64,000 bases of DNA, taken from the IMG/VR virus record IMGVR_UViG_3300045999_009829. One strand, 5' to 3'. A program made the position numbers and the translations under genes. This DNA comes from a virus. The notes beneath the pieces were generated by a model, which did no database searches, was not told the origin of the DNA, and saw nothing but the letters and a program-made list of their open reading frames with translations. Shown here piece after piece: positions 24,351 to 61,753 of this stretch. Positions within the stretch are counted from its first letter, which is position 1, and the number at the start of each line of letters is the position of its first letter.

Positions 24351-24354
24351 CGCA

Positions 24355-27922: not shown

Positions 27923-27923
27923 T

Positions 27924-28704: not shown

Positions 28705-28723
28705 ATTAAAACACCAATCAGGT

Positions 28724-30010: not shown

Positions 30011-30011
30011 A

Positions 30012-30464: not shown

Positions 30465-30470
30465 CGAATC

Positions 30471-30797
30471 CTACCTTGTGACTTGTGGAGTTACAGTCAC
30501 TATTCCTTCAACCAACCTGATCACCGTGCCTGACTGATCCACCGACTCGACGTCGTACACGTATCTTCCGGCGGTGATGGATCCAGTGGTGGCAGCATTC
30601 ATGGACAGCGCTACCACACCCAGCGACGTAAGGGTAACACCGAACGCAAACGACGTCGACGACGAGTACGACTTCCTCAACTGGGATTGAGCCGTATAGT
30701 TGGTAAAGTCTATGGGATCGCCGTTGTCAGTCAGGATCGTAAAGGACGTATTAAAGGTAGTTCCCTGGTCGATGACTATGTTTACTTTCTGCGCCAT
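30471..30797 (-). CDS. small virion structural / fibre adaptor protein
   Basis: NIVIDQGTTF...DFTNYTAQSQLRKSYSS...GRYVYDVE...RLVEGIVTVTPQVT. Confidence 0.7.
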   Translation of the reverse strand: MAQKVNIVIDQGTTFNTSFTILTDNGDPIDFTNYTAQSQLRKSYSSSTSFAFGVTLTSLGVVALSMNAATTGSITAGRYVYDVESVDQSGTVIRLVEGIVTVTPQVTR

Positions 30798-30821: not shown

Positions 30822-30829
30822 TATTTATA
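30822..30829 (-). promoter_or_regulatory. T4 late promoter TATAAATA
   Basis: Exact consensus in an intergenic gap. Confidence 0.8.
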
Positions 30830-30832
30830 AAA

Positions 30833-31636
30833 CTAGGAGAGTCCCATCTCCTGTCTGATCTTTGTGGCGGAGATGGAGTGGATGGCCTCGTCGAACACCT
30901 CCTGCTCGATCTTGTATCCAACATCACGGCCGTAGGTGATGTTCACGATGTTGGGAACTACCATCACGGTATACTTGCCGAAGTACTTAAGTCCGAGTGC
31001 GGCATGGATCCTTTGCTCAACGTTGACCGGGTCAAACGGGTTGGAGTCGTTCCATCCCTGGCAGTCACGAATCATGATGCAGACCTGCCCAGTCTTTGCA
31101 AGAGCTCTCTCGAAGAGCGCCTGGTGGCCCGGGTGCCATGGCTGCCACCTTCCTAACATCTGGACTGTAGGCTTCCTAGGATCAAAGCGCTCTGGCTTTC
31201 TGCCAGCTGCAATGTCGGCTGCAATGAGCTTTGCCCAGCCATCAGCGTCGACGCTTCGGATCCTGTAGTCGCACTGCGTGGGTGCCTCAAAGATCTTGTT
31301 GGTGTCCTCAAAGCGACCAGCAGTGATGGTGTCCAGCCAGATCACGTAGTCGGGCTCACCTCTCTCCGCAAACACGTCCCTGAGCTTCCTTGTCGGGCAC
31401 ACGAACTCACAGATGGAGACGTATCCCTCGCTCTTGTCCTTGGTGCCGTAGTCACCCATGCGGATGGCCTGGCGAGTCCTGCCCTCGTCCGAGAAGTCCC
31501 AGTCGTCGAACATGCTGCGGACCGAATCCGCGTTGTGCCACCGAACCTTGGATCCCAGGAGCTCTAGCTCTTCCACAAGCTTTCCAGCCAGAGTCGTCTT
31601 GCCCGACCCCGGTAGACCCATAATCAAAACCTTCAT
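30833..31636 (-). CDS. adenylylsulfate (APS) kinase-like domain fused to an HxGH nucleotidyltransferase domain
   Basis: GLPGSGKTT, NADSVR..FDDWDFSDEGRTRQ, FVCP and FEAP (CysC-like); C-terminal GRWQPWHPGH and ISATKIR. Confidence 0.8.
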   Translation of the reverse strand: MKVLIMGLPGSGKTTLAGKLVEELELLGSKVRWHNADSVRSMFDDWDFSDEGRTRQAIRMGDYGTKDKSEGYVSICEFVCPTRKLRDVFAERGEPDYVIWLDTITAGRFEDTNKIFEAPTQCDYRIRSVDADGWAKLIAADIAAGRKPERFDPRKPTVQMLGRWQPWHPGHQALFERALAKTGQVCIMIRDCQGWNDSNPFDPVNVEQRIHAALGLKYFGKYTVMVVPNIVNITYGRDVGYKIEQEVFDEAIHSISATKIRQEMGLS

Positions 31637-32349
31637 CACCAATCTCCTGTCCAATGCTTTAACTTAAACTCTCTGTAGAACTGTCTCTTCTCGAACTCGT
31701 GGTCTATCTGATCCAGCTCGGGGCGATACAGTATAGTGTCATAGGGCGGCACCTCATCATAAGTCTGGATGAAGCCGCACTCGCTTATCCGCTTTCGAAT
31801 CAACCCAAACGCTTGCTCGCCCGGATTTATGTCGACCATCTCACCGAGCAGGTTGATAGTCACCGCATGGAAGTATGTCTGCGGTCCCAGGAAATACGTG
31901 TTGTTGGATCCTTCAGCTCTCCTCTTTAGGTTGAGCCCCAGCGCTGTAGTGAAGATGGGATTGCCCGGTGCGCTGCACATGAAGTCGTGAGAGAAATCAC
32001 GCCCTGCGCAGATGGGAAGAACCATCATTGCTTTGTGATCAATCACGCTATCGAGCGAGACATTGCACAGTCTATCTATGTCGACGTATAGACCGCCCTC
32101 CTCATACAGCTTAATCAGCCTCCACACGTCTGACTTTACAACTGGATGGCAGTGCTTCAATCTAGAGTAGTCACTCGCGTCGAGCTTAACCCTGAGGTAG
32201 TCATCAAGGTCGCCATCGTCGCTTATCTCTACAGTCCAGTTGGGCGACAGCTGCACCAGTCTGCCTATGCAGTTCCTGACAAACCTCGACTCAGACTGCA
32301 GTAGGTCCTTCGTCTTCCATGATATATGTATCTTGCGAGGTATGATCAC
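31636..32349 (-). CDS. glycosyltransferase, GT32/OCH1-like (DxD)
   Basis: IPRKIHISWK, KSDVWRLIKLYEEGGLYVDID, FLGP. Confidence 0.85.
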   Translation of the reverse strand: MIIPRKIHISWKTKDLLQSESRFVRNCIGRLVQLSPNWTVEISDDGDLDDYLRVKLDASDYSRLKHCHPVVKSDVWRLIKLYEEGGLYVDIDRLCNVSLDSVIDHKAMMVLPICAGRDFSHDFMCSAPGNPIFTTALGLNLKRRAEGSNNTYFLGPQTYFHAVTINLLGEMVDINPGEQAFGLIRKRISECGFIQTYDEVPPYDTILYRPELDQIDHEFEKRQFYREFKLKHWTGDW

Positions 32350-32996
32350 GGGAACACCAGCTTGAACTCTAACCTCGACTTCTCGTTAGGCATGTCGAGT
32401 GGGTGTGGCATCTCTACATCTCTATAGAACACGTTCTGTGCGGACGAGAACGTAAGCTCCAGACAGCTCGGTATGAACTGCTCTGGCGTCTCGATGTACG
32501 AGTTGTTGTTTGCGTGCACGTGAACTAGCTTCTGGTCGACCTTGCCGATGAAGTTTGCTATCTGGTCAAACTTGTCGGGCTGATTTACGTCGTGGAACTC
32601 TATGACCATGCCAGTAAATCTTCGCGTGTTCGCTATAAGCGAGTCTAGCAGACCGTATTCGTCTCCCTCTATGTCGCACTTCAAGAACACGTTGCTGCCA
32701 TGCAAGATGTCATCTATAGATCCTTTGACGTTCTGCTTGTGTAGGCGCTTGCCGTCTATGAAGAAGGATTCGTCGACCTTTGCTTGCTCGTCGTAGGCAT
32801 CCATCTGGCACGGGTTCAACCGAAAGAAGTCTACCTCGTACGAGTTGTCGGGCCCGATGCCCAAGCTCAGCAGTCTGGTGGTTGCAATCACGTCGCTGTA
32901 GTTGACCAGATACCCGCCGTCGTAGTCCTTGCCCAGACGAACAAGCTCCCTGCAGTAGAAGGGCTTCAGGATCCTGGGTAGCTTCATGGTGTTCAT
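32346..32996 (-). CDS. FkbM-like SAM methyltransferase
   Basis: RLGKDYDGGY, LSLGIG, FLKCDIEGDEY, IEFH, HVHANN; likely start at 32996 or 32987. Confidence 0.8.
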   Translation of the reverse strand: MNTMKLPRILKPFYCRELVRLGKDYDGGYLVNYSDVIATTRLLSLGIGPDNSYEVDFFRLNPCQMDAYDEQAKVDESFFIDGKRLHKQNVKGSIDDILHGSNVFLKCDIEGDEYGLLDSLIANTRRFTGMVIEFHDVNQPDKFDQIANFIGKVDQKLVHVHANNNSYIETPEQFIPSCLELTFSSAQNVFYRDVEMPHPLDMPNEKSRLEFKLVFP

Positions 32997-33058
32997 GTCA
33001 ATGCGCTCTCTTGATAAACGCAGATTGGTAGCCGTTGAGCTGGTGAAACTCGTATAGG

Positions 33059-33973
33059 TCATACGGCACTTGCAATTTCTTTCAGTTGTTCCCTCGTGAA
33101 CTTCATGGCGCCGTCGTTGAGCCTGTCGGCAAACTCACAGTCGGGCCCGCCTATGCGGATGGGGTTGTAAGCTACCTGAACGGACTTATTCCTGTAGAAC
33201 TTGAAGTGCTTGGGATAACTTACGTTGACTTCGAACGTGGACCCCATTATAATGGTTCCTGACCGATTAAACGATCTAGCCATGTGTTGACCAACTGAGT
33301 CGACACCGACAAAGTAGTCACACTGAGATATCATAGCCATGTAGAACCTGAGGTCTGCATTCATGCCCTTACCATTGAGCATGAAGTTGTCCTTGGGGTG
33401 AATGTAGTCGTTGGGTCCGAAGTACAGGACTGCAGCCTTCTCCGATAGCATCCTGCCCAATTCAAGTGCATCGTCGACGTCGAGGCTCCTGCTTGTGGTG
33501 TCCGTAGGTCTGCCGTTGACTACTTGAATGCCGGACCCATAGGGCTGAAACACAACGAACTTGCTCTTGCCCTTGGCTCGCCTGGCTTCCTCGATGAGCT
33601 TTTGTGCGGTCGCGACCTCGTTCGAGTGTAGGTATAGTTTAGGCTGAGCTAGATCCGAGTGGTCATCGGTCTGGTTGATCTCTTCGTCGAACGCCTCCAC
33701 CAGGGACTTCCTCTGGTTGTAGTAGCTCCACCGGTGGTAGGGCTCTGGGGCTTTGAGCTCCCTGTCCTTGATCACCAGGTCAAAGATGCCCTTCTGACCT
33801 ATGCCGTATGTTCTGGGCTGCAGGAGCGGGTGGTTCCAGTACAGGTTCTCCCACCCATGCACGATGACCTTGAAGTCATCATTGGGATTGAGTCTTGCAT
33901 ACTTCTCTAGAGCGGGAATAGCCGTTATGACTCTCCCCGCCCCACCACTGATCATGAACGCGGTGCTTCTCAT
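33059..33973 (-). CDS. GT9-like (heptosyltransferase-like) GT-B glycosyltransferase
   Basis: ISGGAGRVITAIPAL, VVFQPYG, MISQCDYFVGVDSVGQHMA, IMGST. Confidence 0.75.
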   Translation of the reverse strand: MRSTAFMISGGAGRVITAIPALEKYARLNPNDDFKVIVHGWENLYWNHPLLQPRTYGIGQKGIFDLVIKDRELKAPEPYHRWSYYNQRKSLVEAFDEEINQTDDHSDLAQPKLYLHSNEVATAQKLIEEARRAKGKSKFVVFQPYGSGIQVVNGRPTDTTSRSLDVDDALELGRMLSEKAAVLYFGPNDYIHPKDNFMLNGKGMNADLRFYMAMISQCDYFVGVDSVGQHMARSFNRSGTIIMGSTFEVNVSYPKHFKFYRNKSVQVAYNPIRIGGPDCEFADRLNDGAMKFTREQLKEIASAV

Positions 33974-34428
33974 CCCCGCTTGAGGTCCTGCGTCATGGGG
34001 TTGTACTCCTTGAACCACTCCATGAACTCCTTGTCACCGAGATAGTTCCACACGCCGTCAAGCTGGTAGATGACTGGCATGCCGGTCTCAAGCCAGTTCT
34101 GCACGAGCCAGGACAGGTACTTGGACTCCATCTTCTGACCGCACTCGACGACTCGCAGCATGGGCTTGCTCTTGTTGGGACCCCAGCCCTCTATGTTGAC
34201 AAGCACCTTGGACTCTGATGGCTTCATCCACTCGGGCACTATGTTTTGGATATATCCACACCAGTAGTCCCTGCACGACTGAGGTCTGTGCTCGTGAATG
34301 GTGCAGTTCTTTCCTAGGTAGTGACAGGGTCTCCCGGGGAACTTGCGGCGACCGAACACCTCGTACTGAAGCCACTTGCAGCACTCGTTGCAGTCGCCGC
34401 AAGACCTCTCAACTTTCGGTTCCATCAC
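33970..34428 (-). CDS. YkgJ-like CxxCxxCC metal-binding protein
   Basis: CGDCNECC...PCHYL...CTIHEHRPQSCRDYWC. Confidence 0.8.
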   Translation of the reverse strand: MMEPKVERSCGDCNECCKWLQYEVFGRRKFPGRPCHYLGKNCTIHEHRPQSCRDYWCGYIQNIVPEWMKPSESKVLVNIEGWGPNKSKPMLRVVECGQKMESKYLSWLVQNWLETGMPVIYQLDGVWNYLGDKEFMEWFKEYNPMTQDLKRG

Positions 34429-35056
34429 TTCTCCATCTATTCAATACCGAATCCATCTGGTCCATGGTCGCCTGCAGGCTCACCCCCGTGCCCAGGTGCA
34501 CGAAGTAGTATCTCTGCCAGTCTTCCCACGTGATGCCGTTGTACTTGAGTCCGAACCTGGCTAGGTTCTCTGAGAAGGCAAACTCGTCGACGTGACTCTT
34601 CTTGTGGAGCAGGAACGACTTTGCCTCTGTGGCGGTGTAGTCAAGCGGTCGGAACAGGTCGTGGGTGTGGCGACAAGCGATGACTGCATTGGTGGCGATG
34701 CCTACGTTCCTGCCGTCCCTCTTGAAGTATATATTGCGCTCTGTGTCGAAGAACTCACTGGCGTGGAAGTTGTCGTTGAACCCCACGTGGTATGGATGAC
34801 AGAGAGTAGTGAAGTCGGGAAACTTGGCGTGGATCAAGATGTCGACGTCGAGCAGTAGGTTCCAGTCATAGCCAGCGCCGTCCCTGTAGACCTGGAGCTT
34901 CTCATACAGGATGTTCCAGTCGGGATACTTCCTCTGCGTGATCAAGTTCAGGTCGGCGCCTATTCGATCTGCATAGCGCTTGATCCGAGGATAGGTCACC
35001 GACCAGACTTCTGGCAGGTAGTTACCGATGTTGACTACGTGGATGCACTTGCTCAT
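34409..35056 (-). CDS. GT-A fold glycosyltransferase
   Basis: YADRIGADL, YEKLQVY, LLLDVDILIH (DxD), DEF, FVH. Confidence 0.65.
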   Translation of the reverse strand: MSKCIHVVNIGNYLPEVWSVTYPRIKRYADRIGADLNLITQRKYPDWNILYEKLQVYRDGAGYDWNLLLDVDILIHAKFPDFTTLCHPYHVGFNDNFHASEFFDTERNIYFKRDGRNVGIATNAVIACRHTHDLFRPLDYTATEAKSFLLHKKSHVDEFAFSENLARFGLKYNGITWEDWQRYYFVHLGTGVSLQATMDQMDSVLNRWRSDGTES

Positions 35057-35508
35057 AGATAGAGCGCCGAGAAGTCCTTGCCTGATGGATCCTTGGGTAG
35101 GTTGGTGCTCATGCCGTCGTCGAGCAGGGCTTGCAGAACTTGCTCTCTGGTGACATCACCCTTCCTTGCCATCTCGACCATCACGGCGACTGGCATGTGG
35201 TATATGTACGCGATGGCAAGTACTGTGGCGTGCAGGTTGTGCACTAGGAGACCCTTGTCCTCTTCCTTGCATACTCCGGCAAGCACCTGTCGAGCAGTCT
35301 TCCTGTACTTCATGGCTGGAAAGTGCGGCTGCATCTTGTGGAACCTATCTGGATCCTTGGGATCCTCCAGAACAAGAAGTGGCTCTGCCGCTTCCTCTTC
35401 CTGGCACCACTTCTCCAGATTGATAAGAGCTAGCATGATGCCCACGATATCGTCATCGTAGTCTGCATCTTGGAACCTGCAGTGGAGGTCCCTCAGTCTG
35501 TTACTCAT
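35053..35508 (-). CDS. hypothetical protein
   Basis: Overlaps both neighbours; phage-like codon use. Confidence 0.6.
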   Translation of the reverse strand: MSNRLRDLHCRFQDADYDDDIVGIMLALINLEKWCQEEEAAEPLLVLEDPKDPDRFHKMQPHFPAMKYRKTARQVLAGVCKEEDKGLLVHNLHATVLAIAYIYHMPVAVMVEMARKGDVTREQVLQALLDDGMSTNLPKDPSGKDFSALYL

Positions 35509-36041
35509 CTTTCCTCCTTTCTGTCAATGTTCATAGCGACCACTAGCCTCTCAGCGATGGTCTTCGGCACCTCGTGGTAGAGGATGCCAGGGAACACCAG
35601 CAGTGTGCCGGTCTTTGGCGTCACCGTCAGTGTGTCCTCGAATATGATCGGCGCAGCGCCCTCTGCTATCTCCAGATAAGCGACTGCAGCAAAGTCGCTG
35701 GGGTAGTGATAGTGTCGGTCGGTGTGGTCGCCAGGTCCGTAGTGAGCGCCCCAGCAGTTGTAGCACATGAAGTCCAAGTCGACCTTGAAGTAGTCTCTGG
35801 ATATGAACTTCACACAGGATAGAGTCAAGTCGACCAGCGGCATGAAGTTCTGATTGAATATGTGGCTTGACCAACCGCTCACATATTTAGCCTTCACGTT
35901 GCTCTCCATGGAGATCGGGTACCGCTCTTGCTCCTGCTGTATGGCTAGCTTTGCGGCCTCTATGGCGTCCAAGTGAGAGCTTATATCTACCGTGAAGACC
36001 GGGAGGCGCTTCTCTACGGTAAGTACTTCGACTGTTGACAA
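35505..36041 (-). CDS. putative 2OG-Fe(II) oxygenase (HxH...H type)
   Basis: WGAHY..GDHTDRHYHYPSDFAAVAYL, LLVFPGILYHEV, RLVVAMN. Confidence 0.75.
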   Translation of the reverse strand: MSTVEVLTVEKRLPVFTVDISSHLDAIEAAKLAIQQEQERYPISMESNVKAKYVSGWSSHIFNQNFMPLVDLTLSCVKFISRDYFKVDLDFMCYNCWGAHYGPGDHTDRHYHYPSDFAAVAYLEIAEGAAPIIFEDTLTVTPKTGTLLVFPGILYHEVPKTIAERLVVAMNIDRKEER

Positions 36042-36697
36042 TTGTCCAATCCTCTGACTGTGGTTTCACCCCTGAGGTCGTACGCGTACACGTCGAACTG
36101 ACTCATGGGAAACAGCTCGGCTCTCACATACATGTCCAGGCTCTCGTAGATCCCATGCTTTATTGTGTACGAGACTAGAGACCTGGCGACCGCTGGATCT
36201 ATGGCGTATGCATGGGCTCTGCACAAGCTCCTGAGCCTGCCTCTCTGGTCACTGGCGTGCGGCGGAGTCGCGTAGACCGGCTGACCGCGAGTCTGCTCTA
36301 TAGAGCCGAGATATACTATGGAGTTGAACAGTCTGTGCATCAGATACGGCTTGACCATGATGGCGTCGTGTTCGAGGATGACTATCGGCTTATCGACCGT
36401 GAGGCACCGGCACCACAAGCTGTAGTGACTCATGAAGCATGCCACCTGCGCCCACGAGAGCTTCTCAGTGATCAGCTTTGGCCAAAGCAGGTGTGGAATT
36501 CCCTTTAGGTGCTCTGGAATCTCTGGTCTGCCGTTAACGCCGTCAAAGCCCTGCCATAGAGTGAACTTTTGGCCGACTGACTGAAGTGACTCGACACACC
36601 GAGCGGTGAGCTCTTCTGAAGTCTTGTTGCCCTTCAGGGTGATGACGTATGCCGAGTCGACGTCGTTGTCGTGGAAGTTGGCGTCAAGGCTCTTCAT
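36014..36697 (-). CDS. GT25-family glycosyltransferase
   Basis: AYVITL, GFDG, ACFMSHYSLW.RC, IVILEHDA, AHAYAIDP..A. Confidence 0.85.
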   Translation of the reverse strand: MKSLDANFHDNDVDSAYVITLKGNKTSEELTARCVESLQSVGQKFTLWQGFDGVNGRPEIPEHLKGIPHLLWPKLITEKLSWAQVACFMSHYSLWCRCLTVDKPIVILEHDAIMVKPYLMHRLFNSIVYLGSIEQTRGQPVYATPPHASDQRGRLRSLCRAHAYAIDPAVARSLVSYTIKHGIYESLDMYVRAELFPMSQFDVYAYDLRGETTVRGLDNCQQSKYLP

Positions 36698-36703
36698 GGC
36701 GAG

Positions 36704-37546
36704 TTACCTGCTGGTCAATAGCTCCGGATAGAAGGTCTCATAGAACCACCTGCAGTTGTGCAGGACCGAAGCGGAATCCTGTTCCGACATGTACTTAGGC
36801 CATGACGGACCGTGAGACTCGAGCCGCGGCTTGGTAACGTGACTGACAAGCGCCCTATAGACCGTGTCGTGCTCGTAGTACTCAGACTGCTTGATGTTGT
36901 TCATGTCGTGCTCATAGTTGTCCATGCCTAGCCACTGGTACATGGACCTAAGTGACCTGACTGGCTCCTTGCTGAAGTCTTCCCAACGAGCAATGAAGAA
37001 GTTGTTGGGCCTCTTCTGCATCCACTCGAACACGTGCCTGAGAAACATGAGAGGTCTACCCATGTTTCCGCCAACGTCGGTGCAGTAAAGCTCTACTCGC
37101 TTTGACACGGGTAGCATGTGGAAGGGATCATCTCTGGATCCCATATGTATGTGCGTGTTCTTGAACAGTAGCTTTTCGAACGACGCTATGATGTCTCTGA
37201 GGTCCCTGAGGCATACTATGAACTTGGGATCATCGTAGATCGTGAACAGGGTATTGATGTGTGTATCCCAAGTCCTAGACTTGCTGATGACCACGGGCTT
37301 GTCAGTCAGCGTGGAGAACCAGCCGTCAATGCCGCCGCGGATGAAGCCCTTGACCGCTTCAGCGGCGGTGTCCTGCGGCATGGCTATGAACTCTGACACC
37401 GACGTCGACTGAGCTTTGACGGCTTCGGTCACATAGGGTAGTGGACATGTTCCGGTGGTGTAAATCTTTGGGTTCTGCTGAAGGATATTCATCAGAACCG
37501 TAGATCCAGAACGAGGTAGTCCGATGCAGAAGTTCACTGCTTTCAT
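36704..37546 (-). CDS. sulfotransferase family protein
   Basis: GLPRSGSTVLMNILQQNP (PAPS-binding loop), KSR.W, LRDLRDIIASF, RWEDF. Confidence 0.85.
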   Translation of the reverse strand: MKAVNFCIGLPRSGSTVLMNILQQNPKIYTTGTCPLPYVTEAVKAQSTSVSEFIAMPQDTAAEAVKGFIRGGIDGWFSTLTDKPVVISKSRTWDTHINTLFTIYDDPKFIVCLRDLRDIIASFEKLLFKNTHIHMGSRDDPFHMLPVSKRVELYCTDVGGNMGRPLMFLRHVFEWMQKRPNNFFIARWEDFSKEPVRSLRSMYQWLGMDNYEHDMNNIKQSEYYEHDTVYRALVSHVTKPRLESHGPSWPKYMSEQDSASVLHNCRWFYETFYPELLTSR

Positions 37547-37578
37547 GATATGGTGCACACCCTTTCAAGTTTTAATTA

Positions 37579-38715: not shown

Positions 38716-39893
38716 GTCCCTGAGTCCATCCTACTTCTGATCTCTTCTGACACGTCACCCCAGGATCCGTCTACTCTCTGCCGCAGCTCTAGGACGTTCG
38801 AACCGTACCAGGGCTTTCCCTCCCACACGAAGTAAGGAACCAGCGGAGTCAGTACGGCCAATCCCTTGCCCATCCCAGCGGCTAGGTGCGCCACCGACGT
38901 GCAGCTAGATACGACTAGATCCATCTCTCTCATAATGCAGTATGTGTCCAACCAGCTATTTATCCGATTGCCGATCCACGTGGATCCTCTGACCGCATGG
39001 CTCTCTATCTGGAAGTCGTAGAGGTCACCGACGCTAGCTAGTGACTCGAAGTTCTCCACCGGAACCTGCCTAAACTGCTCGTGCTCGAACTCTGGGTTGC
39101 CCGCCCACTTCACGCCGATCTTGAATCCAGGCTTGAACTTCAGCGTGGGATCCTCGACGTTGACTTGTATATAGTCAGGCCTGTCCACTTCCTCAAATGG
39201 ATCATCGAGTCTGAGCAGAGACGGGATCGCCATGGACGGAACCACGCAGTCGAACTGGTTAGGATCAAAGTTCTTTTCAGCTGACGCTAGGTGACCCATG
39301 CCACGGATCAAGTCTACCATCGACTTGGGGCAGTATACCACCAGAGAGTCAGACTCGCGCTCGAGCAGCGGAAGCCATCTGGCAAAGATCAGGCAGTCGC
39401 CGTGACCTCCCTCCATGTAGACCGCAGTCCTGTCTCTCTTGGTCGGAGCTCTGATCTTCCTTGGATCCACCCTGGCGTCTCTGTGGATGCTTCCGAACAC
39501 GTTGATCTCTCGACCGGTGTTCATCAGATCAAAGCCCTCCAGGAACTTGCCCTGTCTGACCAGGTGCCAGCCCAGGTTGAACTTGACTGCGGGAATGTCC
39601 TGCGGGAGTGACTGGAGGATCTGAAACGACTCGTCGTGCTTTCCCTGCCAGTTCAGGTACAGTGACAGGTCTATCTGAGCCATAGGATCGTCGGATCCGT
39701 AGTCGAGGTTTCTGATGAGCCCTTCGGCAAGGTCAGGTCGACGCAGCTGATAGAAGCACTTAGCCATGTTGAGCTTGAGCGCCCGCCTGACGGTGCTGTC
39801 TCTCTCGTGTACGTGCACGGCCGCCATGAACTCAAGTGAAGCTAGGTATTCTCTCTTGTCAAACAGCTCCTTTGCCTGGTCAAACGCTACCAT
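38700..39893 (-). CDS. TPR-domain plus GT9-like glycosyltransferase
   Basis: N-terminal helical repeats; EGGHGDCLIFARW, IGVKWAGNP, MDLVVSSCTSVAHLAAGMGK, PWY, RQ...GSW. Confidence 0.8.
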   Translation of the reverse strand: MVAFDQAKELFDKREYLASLEFMAAVHVHERDSTVRRALKLNMAKCFYQLRRPDLAEGLIRNLDYGSDDPMAQIDLSLYLNWQGKHDESFQILQSLPQDIPAVKFNLGWHLVRQGKFLEGFDLMNTGREINVFGSIHRDARVDPRKIRAPTKRDRTAVYMEGGHGDCLIFARWLPLLERESDSLVVYCPKSMVDLIRGMGHLASAEKNFDPNQFDCVVPSMAIPSLLRLDDPFEEVDRPDYIQVNVEDPTLKFKPGFKIGVKWAGNPEFEHEQFRQVPVENFESLASVGDLYDFQIESHAVRGSTWIGNRINSWLDTYCIMREMDLVVSSCTSVAHLAAGMGKGLAVLTPLVPYFVWEGKPWYGSNVLELRQRVDGSWGDVSEEIRSRMDSGTCQVP

Positions 39894-40470
39894 AGTTCAG
39901 ACCATCCTGCTGAGGGGACGTCTTTGTCCATGCCACTAGAGAGTACTTCGTGCCTCTGGTGACAGGCGTTGACCTGTGGATGTGCTGCAGACCACTGGGC
40001 CACACCAGCATGGATCCGACTGGTGACTTCTTGTTGGTAAAGCCGTACCTCGGAAACTCTAGCTCTCCGCCGTCGTGCTCGTCATTCAGCTTCACGGTGC
40101 CTGTCACCATAGAGTCATCCCAGTGCACCGGCAACTCCCTCTGCGTAGTCGGCGTGTACTTGATGATGAACGGCACCTTCCAGCCGCTGAACCACATGCT
40201 AGACGGCATCTTGTAGAAGTCCTCTAGTACCGGCTGAACGGTCTGCTTCCAGTGCATGCAGAATGACCTGTAGAGCTCCGGACTGATCTTGTCGATCCTG
40301 AGCTCCTGACCCGGGACTGGATCGTTGGGTCTGCTCTCGTACTGGTTGATGGAGTCAGCGGCTTCGGTCAGGATCCTGCAGAACTCTGGCTTCCAGAACT
40401 CTATCTGCAGGATGTCGGTCGCTACTTGCTCTACTTTAGGATTGAACACGACGTAGTCGGTGTAGCTCAT
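39880..40470 (-). CDS. 2OG-Fe(II) oxygenase resembling the lysyl-hydroxylase (PLOD) catalytic domain
   Basis: FIIKYTPTTQRELPVHWDDS.VTGTVKLND...GGELEFPR...WPSGLQHIH.STPVTRGTKYSLV. Confidence 0.8.
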   Translation of the reverse strand: MSYTDYVVFNPKVEQVATDILQIEFWKPEFCRILTEAADSINQYESRPNDPVPGQELRIDKISPELYRSFCMHWKQTVQPVLEDFYKMPSSMWFSGWKVPFIIKYTPTTQRELPVHWDDSMVTGTVKLNDEHDGGELEFPRYGFTNKKSPVGSMLVWPSGLQHIHRSTPVTRGTKYSLVAWTKTSPQQDGLNYGSV

Positions 40471-40485
40471 GGTATAGGATATCCT

Positions 40486-41064
40486 TCACTTCTTCGTGTC
40501 GGCTGACATACCTATATATGGCCTTCCATCAAAGAGCCTGTCTCCGTACTGACCGCCTTCTTCCACAAAGTGCATAAACGCTTGGTACTGAGTCCTACCT
40601 AAGAACTCGTCACGCCAGTGATGGAGCTTCGTGCCCTTGTAGATCACCGCGTCGCCAGGATGGAGAGCCGCCATCTGAGGCACCTTCTTCTCTGGATCCA
40701 TGAGCCATATGGGCCAGAGCTCGTCGTAGTCTCCGCCGAAGCTTATGGTCATCGAGTGCTCGCATTCTGGCCTATCCACGTGGGGAAGCAACTCAGCGCC
40801 TCTCTCGTAGATCCTGGCGTAGGTGTATGTCGGTAGCAGTGGTCGACCGGTCGCTCTAGCTAGCATCGGAGCTGACATAAGCATGAACGTGTCGAGCGCT
40901 GGGTCTCCATACACGCAGTGACTCTTCCCGACCTGCGGATCGCCGTCTGTCATCTTACCCGCTATGCGCAGGGTGTTCATGTGCTCGCGAAAGAAGGCGG
41001 CCATAAAGTCAGGGATGAAGTTCCTGATGATCACGAAGCCCTCTTGCTCATACTCAGCGCTCAT
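40486..41064 (-). CDS. 2OG-Fe(II) oxygenase (phage type)
   Basis: LLPTYTYARIY..GAELLPHVDRPECEHS, PGDAVIYKG..LHHWR. Confidence 0.85.
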   Translation of the reverse strand: MSAEYEQEGFVIIRNFIPDFMAAFFREHMNTLRIAGKMTDGDPQVGKSHCVYGDPALDTFMLMSAPMLARATGRPLLPTYTYARIYERGAELLPHVDRPECEHSMTISFGGDYDELWPIWLMDPEKKVPQMAALHPGDAVIYKGTKLHHWRDEFLGRTQYQAFMHFVEEGGQYGDRLFDGRPYIGMSADTKK

Positions 41065-41620
41065 ACACTCTCCTGTCTGTTTCAATCCATGTCACTAGGC
41101 ACTTGCGGACACCTCGAGTAACCGGCGTCACTGCATGCTCGAACTCTGCATAGGACGGGAATATGATCATGTCTCCCGCCTTGGGGTTGAACGTGATCCC
41201 GAGCCTGCAGAAGTCTAGCTTGCCGCCCTCGTAGTCGTCGTTCAGATACCAGATCATAGTCCAGTCTCTGGGGACTACCCTGGTCAGCTTGTTGTTGACA
41301 AAGTCTTCCGAGTCATTGTGTGGGTCGTACTTGCCGCCAGGTCCATACGATAGCAGTTGAGGCTCCTCTACGGACTTAAGTGTAGTCCGGTGCTTTGGTG
41401 CAAGCAGAGTCTCGTGGATATGCTTTGCAGTCGACTCTATATCTATGAGTGTCTGCGGCGGGATCTTGTGTCGACCCGTGTTCCTATACTCTGCGTTGAC
41501 TGACTCGGTGGATCCGTGACCTGTTGAGGTCGGATAAGCCACCGAGTCAGTCAGAGCAAGCAGGTGCGTTACAATGTGTTGCGGGATAAAGTCTCGCTTT
41601 ATAGTCACATATTCAAGCAT
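41054..41620 (-). CDS. prolyl-4-hydroxylase-like 2OG-Fe(II) oxygenase
   Basis: YGPGGKYDPHND, YLNDDYEGGKL, IFPS...HAVTPVTRGVR. Confidence 0.88.
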   Translation of the reverse strand: MLEYVTIKRDFIPQHIVTHLLALTDSVAYPTSTGHGSTESVNAEYRNTGRHKIPPQTLIDIESTAKHIHETLLAPKHRTTLKSVEEPQLLSYGPGGKYDPHNDSEDFVNNKLTRVVPRDWTMIWYLNDDYEGGKLDFCRLGITFNPKAGDMIIFPSYAEFEHAVTPVTRGVRKCLVTWIETDRRVYER

Positions 41621-41694
41621 GATGTAAGACCTTAAGTGTTTTAGTTACTTATTGGGAATGAGCTTAAGGTATCTCATCTTACTTGTTTCCTACG

Positions 41695-42867
41695 TTAAAC
41701 TGACTTGCGGGCCAGGGCATTTTGAACACCAGCTGATATATCAAGCCATTGGGTACCTGGTACCTGTACCGGTGAGGACCTAGTGATTCCGGTGTTGTCA
41801 CCGAGTTCTGCAAATCTATTTCTACCCCAAGACCATAAGGTCCCATCCGATTTACGCGCTAGGGTAAAAGGATCTAGTCCGACCCCACCAGCAGACACCT
41901 CAATCCAGGATGTACCTGGTATTTGTGTCGGTGATGATCTTAGGACTCTATCATTTAAACCAAGTTCTCCATTAAAGTTTCTACCCCAGACCCATAAGGT
42001 GTTATCGGACTTGCGAGCTACAGAAACATAGTTTTTTGTCGACACCTCAACCCATGAGGTACCTGGTACTTGTACCGGAGAGGACCTATCGACTCTATCA
42101 TTTAAACCAAGTTGCCCATTACCATTATATCCCCAGGACCATAGAGTCCCATCTGACTTGCGAGCTAAGACGGGACCGGTTCCCGCACCACCAGCAGGAG
42201 ACATTTCCACCCATGAGGTACCTGGTATTTGTGTCGGTGATGATCTTTGGACTCTATCATTTAAACCAAGCTGCCCGAGAACATTATACCCCCAAGACCA
42301 TAGAGTTCCATCTGTCTTTCTAGCTAGTGAGACTATACCCGAGGTCGCAATATCAGACCATGAGGTACCCGGTATTTGTGTCGGTGAGGACCTACTGTCC
42401 GCCGGATAGGCAGCTGAGGTATTAAGTCCAAGACGACCATTACCATTATACCCCCATGACCACAGAGTCCCATCTGACTTGCGAGCTAGGGAAAGGGACA
42501 TGCCAGCTGCTACCTCGACCCATGAGGTACCTGGTACCTGTATCGGAGAGGATCTATTGACCAACGTATTGTCACCGAGGATGCCAAATTGGTTATATCC
42601 CCATGACCACAGAGTCCTATCTGATTTTCTGGCTAGGGAATGGTTACCACCAGCTGAAATTTCCATCCATGAGATACCGGGTACTTGTATCGGAGAGGAC
42701 ACTTTGCCTGTAGTGTTGTTACCGAGTTGCCCACCATAACCTGTACCCCAAGCCCATAGTGAACCTGGATCATTTGCCGGACTGTAGCACACCCACTTGT
42801 TGGCGCTGATCTTCAGGTAGACCTCGTCGAGGCTCCATACCCCGCAGTCGGCATTAGTTACAGGCAC
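41695..42867 (-). CDS. RCC1-repeat protein 2
   Basis: Seven LARKSDGTLWSWGYN..GQLGLN....RSSPxQxPGTSW repeats. Confidence 0.92.
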   Translation of the reverse strand: MPVTNADCGVWSLDEVYLKISANKWVCYSPANDPGSLWAWGTGYGGQLGNNTTGKVSSPIQVPGISWMEISAGGNHSLARKSDRTLWSWGYNQFGILGDNTLVNRSSPIQVPGTSWVEVAAGMSLSLARKSDGTLWSWGYNGNGRLGLNTSAAYPADSRSSPTQIPGTSWSDIATSGIVSLARKTDGTLWSWGYNVLGQLGLNDRVQRSSPTQIPGTSWVEMSPAGGAGTGPVLARKSDGTLWSWGYNGNGQLGLNDRVDRSSPVQVPGTSWVEVSTKNYVSVARKSDNTLWVWGRNFNGELGLNDRVLRSSPTQIPGTSWIEVSAGGVGLDPFTLARKSDGTLWSWGRNRFAELGDNTGITRSSPVQVPGTQWLDISAGVQNALARKSV

Positions 42868-42868
42868 A

Positions 42869-43591
42869 TCAGCCCCCTTCGATCACCTGGTATCTAGCCC
42901 CGAGTTCCGGACCGTAGTGCCTGACTTGGAGAGGAACTTCTTTGTCGACCATCTGTCCGTTCTCGAACACCTGTTCGGTCCTCGTTCCGATGGTCTCAAG
43001 CTTGAAGAACTCCTGCCAGGATCCCCATGGATCTGCGGCGTCGAATTGAAAGCCGTTGATCCTGTCGAGCTGCTTGCCCCTGAGTCCGGCGATGATGGCT
43101 TCCTTTGTCCTGAAGCTCTCGTGGTTGGCTACGATCCTCTCGGCCAGGACCTGCACGGTGACGCCGCGAACTGAAGCCTCCGTCTCGAGGACTGGCTTTA
43201 CTCCTGGATCGCCGGCAAGGTATGCCTTGGCCTGCTCGTACTTGTAGATGCCGGCGATGGATGCCGTGTCGTCGTACTTGCCCTGCAGGTAGACTCTTCG
43301 GAGTCCACGCTCTTCCTCGAACAGCTGCTCCCTGGCTCTGTCGACCTCTCTGTCAAGATTGGCCTTGACCGCGTCGGCAAACTCCTGCGGCGTGAGCTCC
43401 CAGCACTGATTCTCTGGGTTGGGCTCTGCATCCTCTGACACGGTACCATACCAGAAGCACGAGTTGATGCCGTCCTGCATTAGGATCTGCAGGCCGTCAA
43501 GGTCCGGATTCTTGGGTCCCTCCTTGGAGGTCTCCCTGTTGACTGAGATCCCAGTGATCGAGTCGACCTGAGTGAACTTGAAGTATCTCAT
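42869..43591 (-). CDS. putative fibre assembly chaperone
   Basis: KYEQAKAYL...LETEASVRGVTVQVLAERIV pattern resembles tail-fibre assembly proteins; lies between two RCC1 genes. Confidence 0.5.
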   Translation of the reverse strand: MRYFKFTQVDSITGISVNRETSKEGPKNPDLDGLQILMQDGINSCFWYGTVSEDAEPNPENQCWELTPQEFADAVKANLDREVDRAREQLFEEERGLRRVYLQGKYDDTASIAGIYKYEQAKAYLAGDPGVKPVLETEASVRGVTVQVLAERIVANHESFRTKEAIIAGLRGKQLDRINGFQFDAADPWGSWQEFFKLETIGTRTEQVFENGQMVDKEVPLQVRHYGPELGARYQVIEGG

Positions 43592-43625
43592 TTGTACTGT
43601 GTCTCCATAGAGATCTTACTAATTA

Positions 43626-44771
43626 TTAGACAGCCTTCCGGGCTGCGGTGTGACTACCTGTAGCACCGACAGAGACTTCGGTCCACTGGGTACCTGGTAT
43701 CTGAATCGGTGATGATCTTTGGATGGCTGTATTATCACCTAGTCGACCAGACCCATTGCATCCCCATGTCCACAGGGTCCCGTCGGACTTCCGAGCTGCG
43801 GTGTGACAACCGCCACTAGAGACTTCGGTCCACTGGGTCCCTGGCACCTGAATTGGGGATGACCTTGAAAGGATGTTGCTGTTGTCACCTAGTTGACCAA
43901 ACCCATTGCATCCCCATGTCCACAGGGTCCCATCTGACTTCCGGGCAGCGGTGTGATAACCACCACTAGAGACTTCGGTCCACTGGGTCCCTGGCACCTG
44001 AATTGGAGATGACCTATTAATACTTGTATTGTCACCTAATCGGCCCCAATTATTAAAACCCCATGCCCACAGGGTCCCATCTGACTTCCGGGCTGCGGTG
44101 TGACAAAGACCACCCGAGACTTCGGTCCACTGAGTACCGGGTATTTGAACTGGTGATGACCTTGAAATGACTGTCCCATCACCCAGCTCAGCGGATCCAT
44201 TTAATCCCCATGCCCACAGGGTCCCATCTGACTTCCGGGCTACGGTGTGACGACCACCACTAGAGACTTCGGTCCACTGGGTCCCTGGCACCTGAATAGG
44301 TGATGACCTTGAAATGGCTGTACTGTCGCCTAGTCGACCAGCAACGTTGTCACCCCATGTCCACAGGGTCCCGTCGGACTTCCGGGCTGCGGTGTGACAA
44401 CCACCACTGGAGACTTCGGTCCACTGGGTCCCTGACACCTGAATTGGAGATGATCTGCTTACAAGGCCGATCAGATCTACACCGAGCTCACCGCTGCCGC
44501 TGCTACCCCATGTCCACAGAGTCCCATCTGACTTCCGGGCTGCGGTGTGATAACCGCCACTAGAGACTTCGGTCCATTGGGTCCCTGGCACCTGCACTGG
44601 TGATGACCTATTAACACTTGTATTGTCGCCTAGTCGGCCGAACGCGTTTAAACCCCATGTCCACAGGGTTCCCGGATCATTGTCTCGATTATAAATCACC
44701 CACCCGTTGTTCAGAATGGCGTCTCTTACATCCTGTAGTCTAAACGGCGCCTTAGTAGTGCTACCGCTCAT
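43626..44771 (-). CDS. RCC1-repeat protein 3
   Basis: Seven near-identical PGTQWTEVSSGGxHTAARKSDGTLWTWG repeats. Confidence 0.93.
   Translation of the reverse strand: MSGSTTKAPFRLQDVRDAILNNGWVIYNRDNDPGTLWTWGLNAFGRLGDNTSVNRSSPVQVPGTQWTEVSSGGYHTAARKSDGTLWTWGSSGSGELGVDLIGLVSRSSPIQVSGTQWTEVSSGGCHTAARKSDGTLWTWGDNVAGRLGDSTAISRSSPIQVPGTQWTEVSSGGRHTVARKSDGTLWAWGLNGSAELGDGTVISRSSPVQIPGTQWTEVSGGLCHTAARKSDGTLWAWGFNNWGRLGDNTSINRSSPIQVPGTQWTEVSSGGYHTAARKSDGTLWTWGCNGFGQLGDNSNILSRSSPIQVPGTQWTEVSSGGCHTAARKSDGTLWTWGCNGSGRLGDNTAIQRSSPIQIPGTQWTEVSVGATGSHTAARKAV
43640..44670 (-). repeat. about 150-bp tandem coding repeats with near-identical constant blocks
   Basis: gagacttcggtccactgggtccctggcacctgaa and ccccatgtccacagggtcccatctgacttccgggctgcggtgtga recur with few changes. 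Confidence 0.9.
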
Positions 44772-56506: not shown

Positions 56507-56521
56507 CTTTGTTTTACACCA

Positions 56522-58765: not shown

Positions 58766-58768
58766 CCC

Positions 58769-61014: not shown

Positions 61015-61029
61015 CTCTGATTATCCTAC

Positions 61030-61752: not shown

Positions 61753-61753
61753 G

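Follow-up and report, generated by a model that had tools for sequence, protein, structure and literature searches.

A recurrent module of RCC1 propellers, a tail-fibre protein and modification enzymes in a lake T4-like phage, with a probable role in decorating tail proteins of the phage itself

Here we ask why an uncultured lake T4-like phage interleaves hydroxylase, glycosyltransferase and sulfotransferase genes with RCC1 propeller genes among its structural genes, and on which molecules the encoded enzymes may act. An earlier note on this DNA (IMG/VR record IMGVR_UViG_3300045999_009829; 64,000 nucleotides, the whole analysed stretch, hereafter the window) had proposed that these genes form one pathway that hydroxylates, glycosylates, sulfates and methylates virion proteins, and not a set of unrelated auxiliary genes. 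We examined this proposal by family and fold assignment of each protein, by complex prediction and by comparison with related loci.

Position and packing of the block

Every gene between 63289 and 30833 lies on the minus strand, as do all the features of the block described below. T4-type baseplate genes (gp5/25/6/7/8-like) occupy 52907-63289 and gp13/14/15 neck genes occupy 22786-25095, in agreement with the claimed co-oriented placement between baseplate and neck genes. Between them, a fibre gene, RCC1 propellers and enzymes form an unbroken minus-strand run (30833-46522), flanked on both sides by additional fibre genes. The fibre gene (44771-46522), which had been left outside the limits drawn in the earlier note, belongs to this block and overlaps the RCC1-3 gene by 1 nt. 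From the fibre gene through the last enzyme, 12 of the 18 junctions overlap, part of these overlaps being contingent on the choice of the longest ORF, and the widest gap is 74 nt. The three RCC1 genes (RCC1-1, 37579-38715; RCC1-2, 41695-42867; RCC1-3, 43626-44771) alternate with the enzyme genes, as had been described, and the TPR-GT9 and RCC1-1 genes do share 16 nt, the stop of the former overlapping the start of the latter.

Motif and hairpin searches placed the end of the transcription unit at 30822-30852, where a terminator-like hairpin (30852-30835) covers the last codons of the final enzyme gene and is followed, directly past the end of the block, by the T4 late-promoter motif TATAAATA (30822-30829), which would serve the next fibre-region gene. 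The window contains this motif four times, always on the coding strand (0.31 expected), and its exact form is absent from all intergenic gaps of the block. It is the layout of the operon that suggests late expression of the module.

Enzymes of the module and their nearest relatives

Four 2OG-Fe(II) oxygenases had been claimed and four were recovered, three by Pfam (35505-36041, 39880-40470 and 41054-41620) and the fourth (40486-41085) by its predicted fold. The prolyl-4-hydroxylase-like (P4H-like) enzyme at 41054-41620 (188 aa; PF13640, E 9e-18) has invariant H101, D103, H162 and R172, and its family profile matches the P4H of B. anthracis (3e-15) and that of PBCV-1 (7e-13). Its neighbour at 40486-41085 (199 aa; AF2 pLDDT 87) is predicted to adopt a PHD-type prolyl-hydroxylase fold, with P. 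putida P4H (4j25) and human PHD2 as best Foldseek matches (E 2e-10, TM 0.70); it has an invariant HxD...H motif, and the 'ferrochelatase' label of its PHROG looks wrong. The third, at 39880-40470 (196 aa), resembles collagen-type lysyl hydroxylases (LH), its family profile matching the LH domain of mimivirus L230 (6ax6; 1.5e-16) and human LH3 (1e-9), while the PF13759-type oxygenase at 35505-36041 (178 aa; E 7e-9) has the uncharacterised structures 2rg4 and 3bvc as its nearest (E 1e-4). The LH-like profile found 12 loci, every one inside the module, and the 32 near-full-length matches of the P4H-like protein all lie there too, 48 more distant ones lying elsewhere. Collagen (G-X-Y) repeats are absent from the 64-kb window and from most full-module relatives, and a collagen-type hydroxylase set without a collagen repeat in the window is the distinctive feature of this locus.

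Enzymes of these kinds are known to act on translation factors, P. putida PHD modifying EF-Tu and EarP modifying EF-P. The hydroxylases and transferases might thus act on host factors, or the RCC1 proteins might play no structural part and serve as effectors, or as scaffolds to which the enzymes are recruited. We hold this to be very unlikely, despite the best structural match of the 40486-41085 protein being the EF-Tu-hydroxylating P. putida enzyme and despite the clustering of the three hydroxylase types without RCC1 in six viral contigs (L141, L144, L149, L161, L168 and L170), as orthologues of these particular hydroxylases were found only in the fibre-RCC1 module.

Among the glycosyltransferases, the protein at 38700-39893 (397 aa; AF2 pLDDT 91) joins a TPR region (residues 1-135) to a GT9 fold (residues 154-397) that on fold comparison is nearest WaaF (Z 16.7), TibC (15.7) and WaaC (15.4); its best Foldseek matches are SPY and OGT. 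The GT25 enzyme (36014-36697, 227 aa; PF01755, E 8e-12) is conserved in 22 loci, and homologues of the GT32-type enzyme with a DXD sugar-binding region (31636-32349, 237 aa; PF04488, E 5e-10) stand at the corresponding module end in four loci (L008, L084, L087 and L089). The protein at 33059-34018 (319 aa) belongs to phrog_8954 (E 1.5e-78), whose function is not annotated, and may be a second GT9-like enzyme: it aligns with the TPR-GT9 family over both GT9 motifs (hhalign, E 0.003) and matches heptosyltransferase III at E 0.025. The sole candidate for a GT-A enzyme that had also been called, at 34409-35056 (215 aa), has a DxD motif (D70 and D72 invariant) and no match in Pfam, NCBIfam, PHROG functions or PDB profiles, and none of its 105 homologues carries a Pfam domain.

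The PAPS-type sulfotransferase (36704-37558, 284 aa; PF13469, E 3e-14; PF00685, E 7e-11) has a family profile nearest to protein-tyrosine sulfotransferases (TPST1, 6e-10; TPST2, 1e-6), a match that spans the N-terminal, cofactor-binding half only. Because of this proximity, sulfate need not cap a glycan. The RCC1 and fibre proteins contain no TPST-type acidic tyrosine motif. At the end of the block, a 273-aa protein (30833-31654) fuses an APS-kinase-like P-loop kinase (PF01583, E 1e-10, residues 8-96) to a small HxGH/ISxTxxR nucleotidyltransferase (PF01467 and NMNAT models, residues 163-234), both matches being real and far under the full-family cut-offs. This candidate PAPS-supply enzyme has motifs that are invariant in five homologues, and it is present only in loci that have the sulfotransferase. 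Methylation rests on one non-conserved gene (32346-33062, 238 aa), a possible FkbM-type methyltransferase that scores below threshold (PF05050, E 3e-4, 21.3 bits against a cut-off of 22.7; TIGR01444, E 0.006) and has no homologue among the related loci. The CxxCxxCC metal-binding protein (33970-34428, 152 aa) matches PF03692 at the family level (E 0.23 alone; 12 of 12 family members, best E 2e-4), has eight invariant cysteines and has a homologue in S-SRM01, and a 151-aa protein (35053-35508) is syntenic in 10 loci and has no family match.

The enzyme inventory of the earlier note thus stands for the four oxygenases, GT25, GT32, TPR-GT9, the weakly GT9-like protein, the sulfotransferase, the APS-kinase fusion and the CxxCxxCC protein; the GT-A call found no support, and the FkbM enzyme is at most a possible member. 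Three conserved members (240, 151 and 215 aa) carry no assigned role, which we counted against reading the block as an enzymatic toolkit.

Propellers, fibre protein and conservation of the module

The tail-fibre protein (583 aa) was recognised by its composition (S+T 27%, K 1%), its synteny and its C-terminal domain, a repetitive Thr/Ser/Asn-rich stalk being followed by a conserved domain of about 215 aa (38-64% identity across 15 syntenic loci). The protein itself matches nothing in Pfam or PHROG; the gene preceding RCC1 in related loci matches tail-fibre PHROGs, and the fibre gene invariably directly precedes the first RCC1 gene. RCC1-3 (381 aa) is a seven-bladed beta-propeller (PF25390, E 1e-79; phrog_4219, E 6e-40), and RCC1-2 (390 aa; PF25390, E 4.9e-75) and RCC1-1 (378 aa; PF25390, E 3.5e-68) are propellers of the same family. 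Always between the first two RCC1 genes lies the gene of a conserved helical protein (42869-43591, 240 aa; synteny in 15+ loci) with no match in Pfam or PDB. By Atlas features it matches viral 'tail protein' clusters (0.92), which we take as a lead only.

Three RCC1 paralogues of about 40 kDa, which share phrog_4219 with RCC1-3, were found by mass spectrometry of particles of the E. coli phage W70 (PMC11370258), and virion proteomics detected an RCC1 protein in GAP32 (PMC5259590). The physical presence of same-PHROG proteins in virions speaks against host-directed effectors, and so does the location of RCC1 genes after tail-fibre genes, where in relatives they sometimes form giant multi-propeller ORFs of up to 2,873 aa. 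When modelled as a complex with three copies of the C-terminal fibre domain, RCC1-3 reached an ipSAE of 0.55 (runs 0.55, 0.57 and 0.44; best control 0.00), passing a mark that 58 of the 80 solved complexes and 2 of the 110 mismatched pairs also pass, and that at ipSAE values of 0.60 or less is reached by only seven of the 80 solved complexes and by both passing mismatches; the prediction used its own alignments and a 3:1 stoichiometry, unlike the calibration set-up. At least 84% of contacts agree between runs and partner pLDDT is at least 85. The prediction weakly supports binding of RCC1-3 to the trimeric fibre domain.

P4H, LH and GT25 enzymes classically act on collagen-like repeats, and many related loci have long stretches of these (up to 133 triplets) in the fibre gene that lies upstream of RCC1, the L083 gene matching a 'collagen like minor tail' PHROG. 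The RCC1 proteins could then be assembly chaperones or adaptors of the fibre, and the enzymes might modify only the fibre stalk or the product of a gene elsewhere, for example a collagen-like fibre encoded beyond the 64 kb of genome in view. We give this a slim chance: collagen repeats are hardly ever present within 10 kb in full modules with hydroxylases, the GT9-like gene stays beside RCC1 irrespective of stalk type, and mature W70 virions contain RCC1 proteins, which argues against a pure chaperone.

Synteny over the whole block extends to 33 IMG/VR contigs (30-79% amino-acid identity), in the recurring order fibre C-terminal domain, RCC1, 240-aa protein, RCC1, P4H-like, PHD-like, TPR-GT9, (LH-like), RCC1, (sulfotransferase), GT25 onward, and two cultured cyanophages, S-SRM01 and BUCT-ZZ01, have a reduced form of the module. 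In the gene-neighbourhood survey that had been suggested, based on the 71 loci fetched via the GT9-like protein, 66 have an RCC1 gene on the same strand no more than 2.5 kb from the GT9-like gene, and in 49 an RCC1 gene ends less than 700 nt upstream of it, so that TPR-GT9 is a near-universal partner of RCC1 genes. RCC1-3 is matched by only 27 of 50,697 deposited phage records, and all three distinct deposited phages that have the GT9-like protein also have RCC1. Domain fusions join the same activities: seven listed homologues (560-620 aa) combine a GT9-like protein with precomputed sulfotransferase domains, one of them (P0100) being rescanned, and in P0122-P0124 an LH-like domain (49% identical) is fused with GT25 and GT_PLOD. 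Synteny, RCC1 adjacency and these fusions uphold the view of one module linked to fibre and RCC1 genes instead of unrelated auxiliary genes. We found no paper that describes this RCC1/enzyme module.

Possible targets of the enzymes

GT9, GT25 and GT32 are classically enzyme families of LPS and LOS synthesis, and are named so in Pfam and NCBIfam, which counts against modification of the phage's own proteins. The enzymes might instead be auxiliary ones altering the LPS core, O-antigen or exopolysaccharide of the host, with RCC1 proteins as ordinary receptor-binding proteins that share the operon; if so, they could block superinfection or keep progeny off debris. Clusters of this kind in cyanophages have indeed been read as cell-wall modification genes (PMC12801897). 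Nevertheless we consider host glycans an unlikely target, since polysaccharide synthesis has no use for P4H- and LH-like enzymes or for a TPR domain that binds substrates, the module lacks flippases, polymerases, ligases and any other membrane proteins, and the block lies inside a late structural operon. Moreover, the GT9-like gene follows RCC1 across very different phages (cyanophages and the present proteobacterial-type T4-like phage), a pattern not expected of enzymes aimed at a host-specific glycan. No membrane segment was found in any module protein, and this would be compatible with host glycan targets too, because the LPS core transferases of the cytoplasmic face are also soluble.

The nearest solved relatives of the enzymes, as placed by profile and predicted fold, modify proteins (P4H, L230/LH3, P. 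putida P4H/PHD2, SPY/OGT/TibC and TPST). Taking these results together, we favour, somewhat beyond even chances, a soluble toolkit co-transcribed with late tail-fibre genes that would act in the host cytoplasm, before assembly, on the RCC1 propellers, on their probably attached fibre or on both. In weighing this reading we set against it the missing collagen substrate and acidic tyrosine motif, the half-length TPST match and the weak pass of the predicted complex.

We infer the substrates, the sugars and the order of the steps from these assignments, and they fit parallel branches better than the single linear pathway that had been proposed. In one branch, the LH-like oxygenase would form hydroxylysine and GT25 would add a sugar to it, resembling collagen maturation in animals and mimivirus. 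A second would have the P4H-like and PHD-like oxygenases hydroxylate prolines, which other transferases might glycosylate, as in the glycosylated hydroxyproline of Dictyostelium Skp1. In a third, TPR-GT9 would bind its protein substrate through the TPR or another surface and O-glycosylate it, resembling FlmG, OGT and TibC. Finally, the sulfotransferase would sulfate protein or glycan, the kinase-nucleotidyltransferase fusion providing the PAPS locally. The module may thus represent a recurrent package with which phages probably decorate their own tail proteins.

Position of the module and identity of the phage

The window comes from a T4-like myovirus, whose late structural region it represents, and the minus strand carries every gene from 63289 down to 22786. 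PHROG profiles placed the baseplate hub and wedge proteins at 52907-63289 (minus strand), followed on the same strand by a phrog_358 protein of 2051 amino acids (46734-52889) and a small virion protein, which together occupy 46519-52889 between the baseplate and the fibre genes. The module analysed here extends over 30833-46522, and the minus strand continues beyond it with further fibre-type genes (25347-30797) and with gp13/14/15-like neck and sheath-stabiliser genes (22786-25095). Eighteen further genes lie between the 583-aa fibre gene of the module (44771-46522) and position 30833, with overlaps at 12 of 18 junctions, some of them hinging on the choice of the longest ORF, and a largest gap of 74 nt. 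The T4 late-promoter motif TATAAATA was found in four copies in the window against 0.31 expected, all on the coding (minus) strand (13239-13246, 14319-14326, 30822-30829 and 53167-53174). Three of them stand in short gaps ahead of structural genes, that for the major capsid protein among these, none falls within the intergenic gaps of the module, and one lies directly past its last gene, beside a hairpin. Membrane segments were predicted in none of the module proteins.

The major capsid protein (gene 11831-13210) shares 73% identity with its counterpart in Stenotrophomonas phage DLP6 and about 66% with those of Sinorhizobium and Methylophilales T4-like phages. The DNA of the window occurs in lake-water metagenomes, which may be its source, with no RNA run among those listed as containing it, and no deposited phage is close to it at the DNA level. 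The window therefore belongs to an uncultured freshwater T4-like phage of the proteobacterial-type branch and not to a classical cyanophage.

Several observations concern the surroundings of the module. The first gene after it (30471-30797, 108 aa) has its own late-promoter motif and matches phrog_1084 and the 'L-shaped tail fiber protein assembly' PHROG 3304, and its homologues also follow the module in two related viral loci (L008 and L088). Just upstream of the neck genes, 25347-27596 encodes a fibre-type protein of 749 aa with 19 cysteines, 26% serine plus threonine and 0.9% lysine; an opposite-strand ORF of 463 aa (25630-27021) probably arises as an artefact from the composition of this gene. 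The homologue of the 2051-aa protein in the cultured cyanophage BUCT-ZZ01 is annotated as 'T4-like phage virulence associated protein'. PHROG 460 ('head closure Hc2'), to which the gp14-like neck gene belongs, is also matched by stretches of the two large baseplate-wedge proteins 52907-56506 and 56522-58765, and from these profile matches one domain appears to be common to wedge and neck proteins.

RCC1 propellers, fibre and linked enzyme genes

The three RCC1 genes named in the earlier note (37579-38715, 41695-42867 and 43626-44771) are unambiguous, their products scoring 231-269 bits against a cut-off of 150 (PF25390/PF00415) with six to seven repeats each, as expected of seven-bladed RCC1-like propellers. 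The composition of these proteins is fibre-like (serine plus threonine 20-24%, lysine 2-3%), compared with about 10% and about 5%, respectively, in the enzymes. The best PHROG match of the third propeller (43626-44771) is phrog_4219 (E 6e-40), the family to which three RCC1 proteins in tandem, each about 40 kDa, belong that were detected by mass spectrometry in purified particles of the E. coli phage W70 (PMC11370258), and one RCC1 protein of phage GAP32 is likewise a structural protein (PMC5259590). The published virion proteomics of these phages supports a place for RCC1 proteins in the particle.

Complex prediction of the third propeller with three copies of the fibre C-terminal domain gave an ipSAE of 0.55, with a best control of 0.00, the runs sharing at least 84% of their contacts and the partner pLDDT being at least 85. 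In calibration, 58 of 80 solved complexes attained the mark, as did 2 of 110 mismatches, and at ipSAE values up to 0.60 just seven solved complexes did so, together with both passing mismatches; the RCC1-fibre prediction, unlike the calibration, used its own alignments and a 3:1 set-up. We take this model as a hint that the propeller may bind the trimeric C-terminal domain of the fibre.

Examination of related phages showed that the association of propellers and enzymes extends well beyond the window. The cultured freshwater cyanophage S-SRM01 has, in order, the long-tail-fibre distal subunit, RCC1, a hypothetical gene, RCC1, a TPR protein, a 2OG oxygenase, a further gene group, RCC1, a sulfotransferase, a glycosyltransferase and an epimerase, and in BUCT-ZZ01 a tail-fibre gene is accompanied by a double RCC1 and by a GT9-like gene. 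A profile search of IMG/VR with the GT9-like protein returned at least 546 stretches, and linkage could be judged in 71 of the best 80 loci, where enough upstream DNA was present. In 49 of these 71 loci the end of an RCC1 gene is at most 700 nt upstream of the GT9 gene, and in 66 of them there is a same-strand RCC1 gene no more than 2.5 kb away. Thirty-three contigs, some of them near-duplicates, share the gene order of the full module with the window, at 30-79% identity. Relatives of the lysyl-hydroxylase-like (LH-like) protein lie inside the module in every case (12/12), as do all 32 near-full-length relatives of the prolyl-4-hydroxylase-like (P4H-like) protein, 48 more distant oxygenases lying elsewhere, and in seven relatives the GT9-like domain is fused to a sulfotransferase. 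By the earlier note, the pathway would be refuted if related phages carried the enzymes apart from fibre and RCC1 genes, and the loci examined clearly contradict this. The module is common in lake and marine viromes, yet the GT9-like enzyme is almost absent from cultured phages.

The RCC1 ORFs of related loci range from a single propeller up to poly-propeller giants of 2,873 aa, and in the loci checked RCC1 is preceded by a tail-fibre gene, whose product often has a collagen-like stalk. Near-pure RCC1 concatemers of 2,255-2,873 aa stand directly before the GT9-like gene in L059:1286-9904, L064:2411-9865 and L075:3152-9916. In the fibre genes before RCC1, G-X-Y runs reach 133 triplets (L005, L022-L034, L041-L045, L060-L064, L082 and L083), and the fibre of the window carries a Thr/Ser/Asn-rich stalk on the same conserved C-terminal domain, as in L005; from these sequences, the fibre stalks appear to be swapped.

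Enzymes of the module

The enzyme list of the earlier note stood in large part. Three 2OG-Fe(II) oxygenases, GT32, GT25, the sulfotransferase and the APS-kinase fusion all pass Pfam thresholds; the Cys-rich CxxCxxCC protein belongs to PF03692, whose model is matched by 12 of 12 family members (best E 2e-4); and the fourth oxygenase and the TPR-GT9-like glycosyltransferase were borne out by the predicted folds described below. A second 'GT9-like' protein is a weakly supported candidate on its sequence. Methylation found no support, because the FkbM-like protein falls below threshold (PF05050 21.3 bits against a cut-off of 22.7, TIGR01444 17 bits against 37.7), and its gene is absent from relatives. 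As to 'GT-A', the sole candidate (a conserved protein of 215 aa, 34409-35056) has an invariant DxD but no family or structure-profile match: Pfam, NCBIfam and PHROG gave no function, two PDB profile searches, one of them with a 25-sequence alignment, gave chance matches only, and hhalign comparison with GT25, GT32 and the PLOD-GT fusion was negative. Two other conserved proteins matched no family, namely a 151-aa protein (35053-35508), for which Atlas gave viral hypothetical or 'tail protein' clusters only, and a 240-aa protein (42869-43591), with no PDB match and with Atlas clusters of the same two kinds.

Family profiles built from syntenic relatives and searched against PDB sequences pointed to hydroxylases of proline and lysine. 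The P4H-like protein (41054-41620) scores 65 bits with PF13640 (cut-off 27), keeps H101, D103, H162 and R172 invariant, as a prolyl 4-hydroxylase would, and its profile matches the P4H of B. anthracis (3e-15) and of the chlorovirus PBCV-1 (7e-13). The fourth oxygenase (40486-41085) has no Pfam match, and hhalign comparison with the P4H-like family gave nothing; its assignment as a prolyl 4-hydroxylase was settled by fold search, the predicted double-stranded beta-helix (pLDDT 87) having P. putida prolyl hydroxylase and human PHD2 as best PDB neighbours (E 2e-10, TM 0.70) and the Dictyostelium PHD (6t8m) among its matches. The label 'ferrochelatase' attached to this family through PHROG 2954/3531 was rejected in view of its predicted PHD-type fold, and looks like an annotation error that will spread into other records. 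The LH-like protein (39880-40470) matches 6ax6 with an E value of 1.5e-16 over residues 14-181 of 196, and human LH3 with 1e-9, and has H116, D118 and H163/H165 invariant, as in LH-type 2OG-Fe(II) domains; 6AX6 is the lysyl-hydroxylase domain of mimivirus L230 (PMC5802723). The GT25 protein (36014-36697) scores 45.9 bits with PF01755 (cut-off 24), and its family profile matches the solved GT25 8xlz (4.8e-4).

A parallel is the collagen lysine pathway, represented by mimivirus L230 and by animal LH3/PLOD with the GT25 COLGALT. The module has a GT25 gene as well as the LH-like gene, and longer database relatives of the LH-like protein comprise three domains, GT25, the PLOD GT domain and LH, whereas in the module LH-like and GT25 are separate small proteins. 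One relative of 647 aa with these three domains (P0122, on an 865-kb NCBI contig that is probably cellular) resembles animal LH3 plus an extra GT25. The collagen lysine pathway acts on G-X-Y repeats, but a six-frame scan of the window turned up no run of at least six G-X-Y triplets, and hence no collagen X-Lys-Gly substrate, and full-module relatives other than L005 are without runs of eight or more. With collagen-type hydroxylases and no such run, the acceptor would be something other than collagen, or would lie outside the window, and this putative collagen-type hydroxylase set inside an RCC1 module without collagen is the distinctive addition of the window. In six other viral contigs (L141, L144, L149, L161, L168 and L170) relatives of the three hydroxylase genes are clustered with no RCC1 gene within reach, and the three may move together as an independent unit.

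The TPR-GT9 protein (397 aa, 38700-39893; predicted model, pLDDT 91) consists of about 135 TPR residues followed by a GT-B domain, which over about 225 residues aligns with WaaF (Z 16.7), a V. parvula GT9 (16.2) and WaaC (15.4), and which also aligns with the protein heptosyltransferase TibC (15.7). Pfam PF01075 does not score on the protein itself; the predicted fold and the EGGxGD and TSCTSVAHLAAAMG motifs conserved in its family assign it to the GT9 fold of CAZy. In a Foldseek search with the whole chain, SPINDLY (SPY) and OGT came on top (E 1e-5), at TM values of just 0.27-0.39; membership of GT41 was rejected, the best match at the domain level being GT9 and SPY aligning through the TPR alone (Z 11.0). 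TibC is a dodecamer with a four-cysteine iron site, and this site is not evident in the TPR-GT9 family, where C331 is the sole invariant cysteine. The TibC match is tied with those of LPS heptosyltransferases. The bacterial autotransporter heptosyltransferases TibC/AAH (PDB 4RAP/4RB4) offer a parallel, as GT9-fold enzymes whose target is a repetitive beta-structured surface protein of a neighbouring gene, and the TPR-GT9 enzyme would have a target of this kind as well; the acceptor is a beta-helix in one case and, as we propose, an RCC1 propeller in the other. FlmG of Caulobacter (PMC7591256) and the GT41 enzymes OGT and SPINDLY are cytoplasmic protein O-glycosyltransferases that combine an N-terminal substrate-binding (TPR) part with a GT-B domain, the same two parts as here, and, in a further likeness, the TPR-GT9 enzyme would have several paralogous structural proteins as its substrates ahead of assembly. 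Its catalytic domain is nevertheless of the GT9 fold (Z 15-17) and not GT41, the likeness to FlmG is one of architecture, and the TPR part is absent from most of its RCC1-linked relatives.

The sulfotransferase (36704-37558) scores 54 bits with PF13469 (cut-off 27) and has an invariant N-terminal GLPRSGS, in agreement with the 5'-PSB loop of a PAPS-dependent enzyme. The best solved matches of its family profile are TPST1 (6e-10) and TPST2 (1e-6), over the cofactor-binding half only, and tyrosines in the acidic context typical of TPST substrates are absent from the RCC1 and fibre proteins. A single-sequence scan of viral contigs with the sulfotransferase gave no match, its homologues having been located by tblastn within loci fetched by other queries. 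The kinase fusion (30833-31654, 273 aa) joins an APS-kinase-like to a cytidylyltransferase-like domain, both above Pfam thresholds. Residues 8-96 score 42 bits with PF01583 (Pfam cut-off 21) and 37.5 with NCBIfam apsK, whose cut-off is 138.7, and a P-loop and D-x-V-R...D-F-S...R-Q-x-x-R-M motifs are invariant. Its C-terminal domain matches cytidylyltransferase-like and NMNAT models and none of the ATP-sulfurylase models, and because this half is NMNAT-type the notion of a 'mini PAPS synthase' is hypothetical. Among the related loci examined, the fusion was found only in those that also have the sulfotransferase, and, on this co-occurrence and on the fusion itself, we hypothesize that it may adenylylate sulfate or supply PAPS.

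Proposed decoration of tail-tip propellers and its implications

All close solved relatives of the module enzymes, where any exist, modify proteins. The most likely explanation is that a late-expressed cytoplasmic toolkit modifies either the RCC1 propellers or the fibre tip, or the two together, ahead of assembly, probably through parallel branches. In one of these a lysine would be hydroxylated and then glycosylated by GT25, following the logic of collagen; in others prolines would be hydroxylated by two enzymes, the RCC1-linked GT9-type enzyme would O-glycosylate in the manner of FlmG, OGT or TibC, and sulfation would use PAPS made locally. The main rival, less probable, is that the enzymes remodel host LPS or EPS, as is usually assumed for glycosyltransferase clusters of cyanophages (PMC12801897), where the 'LPS / cell-wall synthesis and modification' clusters of P-SSM2 and S-SCSM2R are read as modifiers of the host surface. 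These clusters, from T4-like phages that infect aquatic hosts, resemble the module in combining 2OG oxygenases and epimerases with glycosyltransferases (GT25 included), but no linkage to RCC1 or fibre genes is described for them, whereas such linkage defines the module, and remodelling of host glycans leaves the protein hydroxylases, the TPR domain and the strict RCC1 linkage unexplained. The virion-decoration pathway proposed in the earlier note is partly supported: it keeps its footing in the RCC1- and fibre-linked module and in the protein-modifying relatives of its enzymes, and loses its methylation step. In its most specific form, the proposal is that tail-tip RCC1 propellers of aquatic T4-like phages carry hydroxyl groups on lysine and proline, receive sugars from a dedicated protein glycosyltransferase of GT9 type and are sulfated with PAPS from a miniature synthase whose sulfate-activating half is NMNAT-like instead of a classical ATP sulfurylase; we put this forward tentatively, as a combination that is rather unlikely to hold in every part.

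Virus-encoded modification of a virus's own virion proteins is known already, and the RCC1-linked module is undescribed in the literature searched, which covered RCC1 together with cyanophages, tail fibres or glycosyltransferases. Precedent for self-glycosylation by phages comes from mycobacteriophages (Freeman et al. 2023, PMC10527164, as cited by PMC12801897 and PMC12619734), in which phage glycosyltransferases encoded near structural genes add sugars, in the cytoplasm, to virion proteins of the phage itself. The targets named there are the C-termini of capsid and tail-tube proteins and the transferases are of GT2 type only, whereas the putative partners of the module are RCC1 propellers and fibres, and its predicted enzymes also include hydroxylases, a GT9-fold transferase, a sulfotransferase and a candidate for PAPS supply. 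For hydroxylation and then glycosylation in the cytoplasm, the Skp1 pathway of Dictyostelium (PMC3515798), which also exists in Toxoplasma (PMC7864055), is the nearest precedent; in it a PHD-type prolyl hydroxylase and then soluble glycosyltransferases act on one protein, although that pathway serves eukaryotic oxygen sensing at one defined proline and the module is a virion operon.

The idea is directly testable because two cultured cyanophages carry a reduced module, one of them on the tractable Synechococcus elongatus PCC 7942. Tail-fibre tips decide which bacteria a phage infects, and if phages decorate these tips with enzymes of their own, then receptor binding, stability and recognition by host defences could not be predicted from sequence alone. 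If true, these would be the first hydroxylated and sulfated virion proteins of a bacteriophage and a case of collagen-type lysine chemistry on a non-collagen beta-propeller, which would extend the 'animal' chemistry of collagen-type hydroxylysine, together with protein sulfation, to bacteriophage virions.
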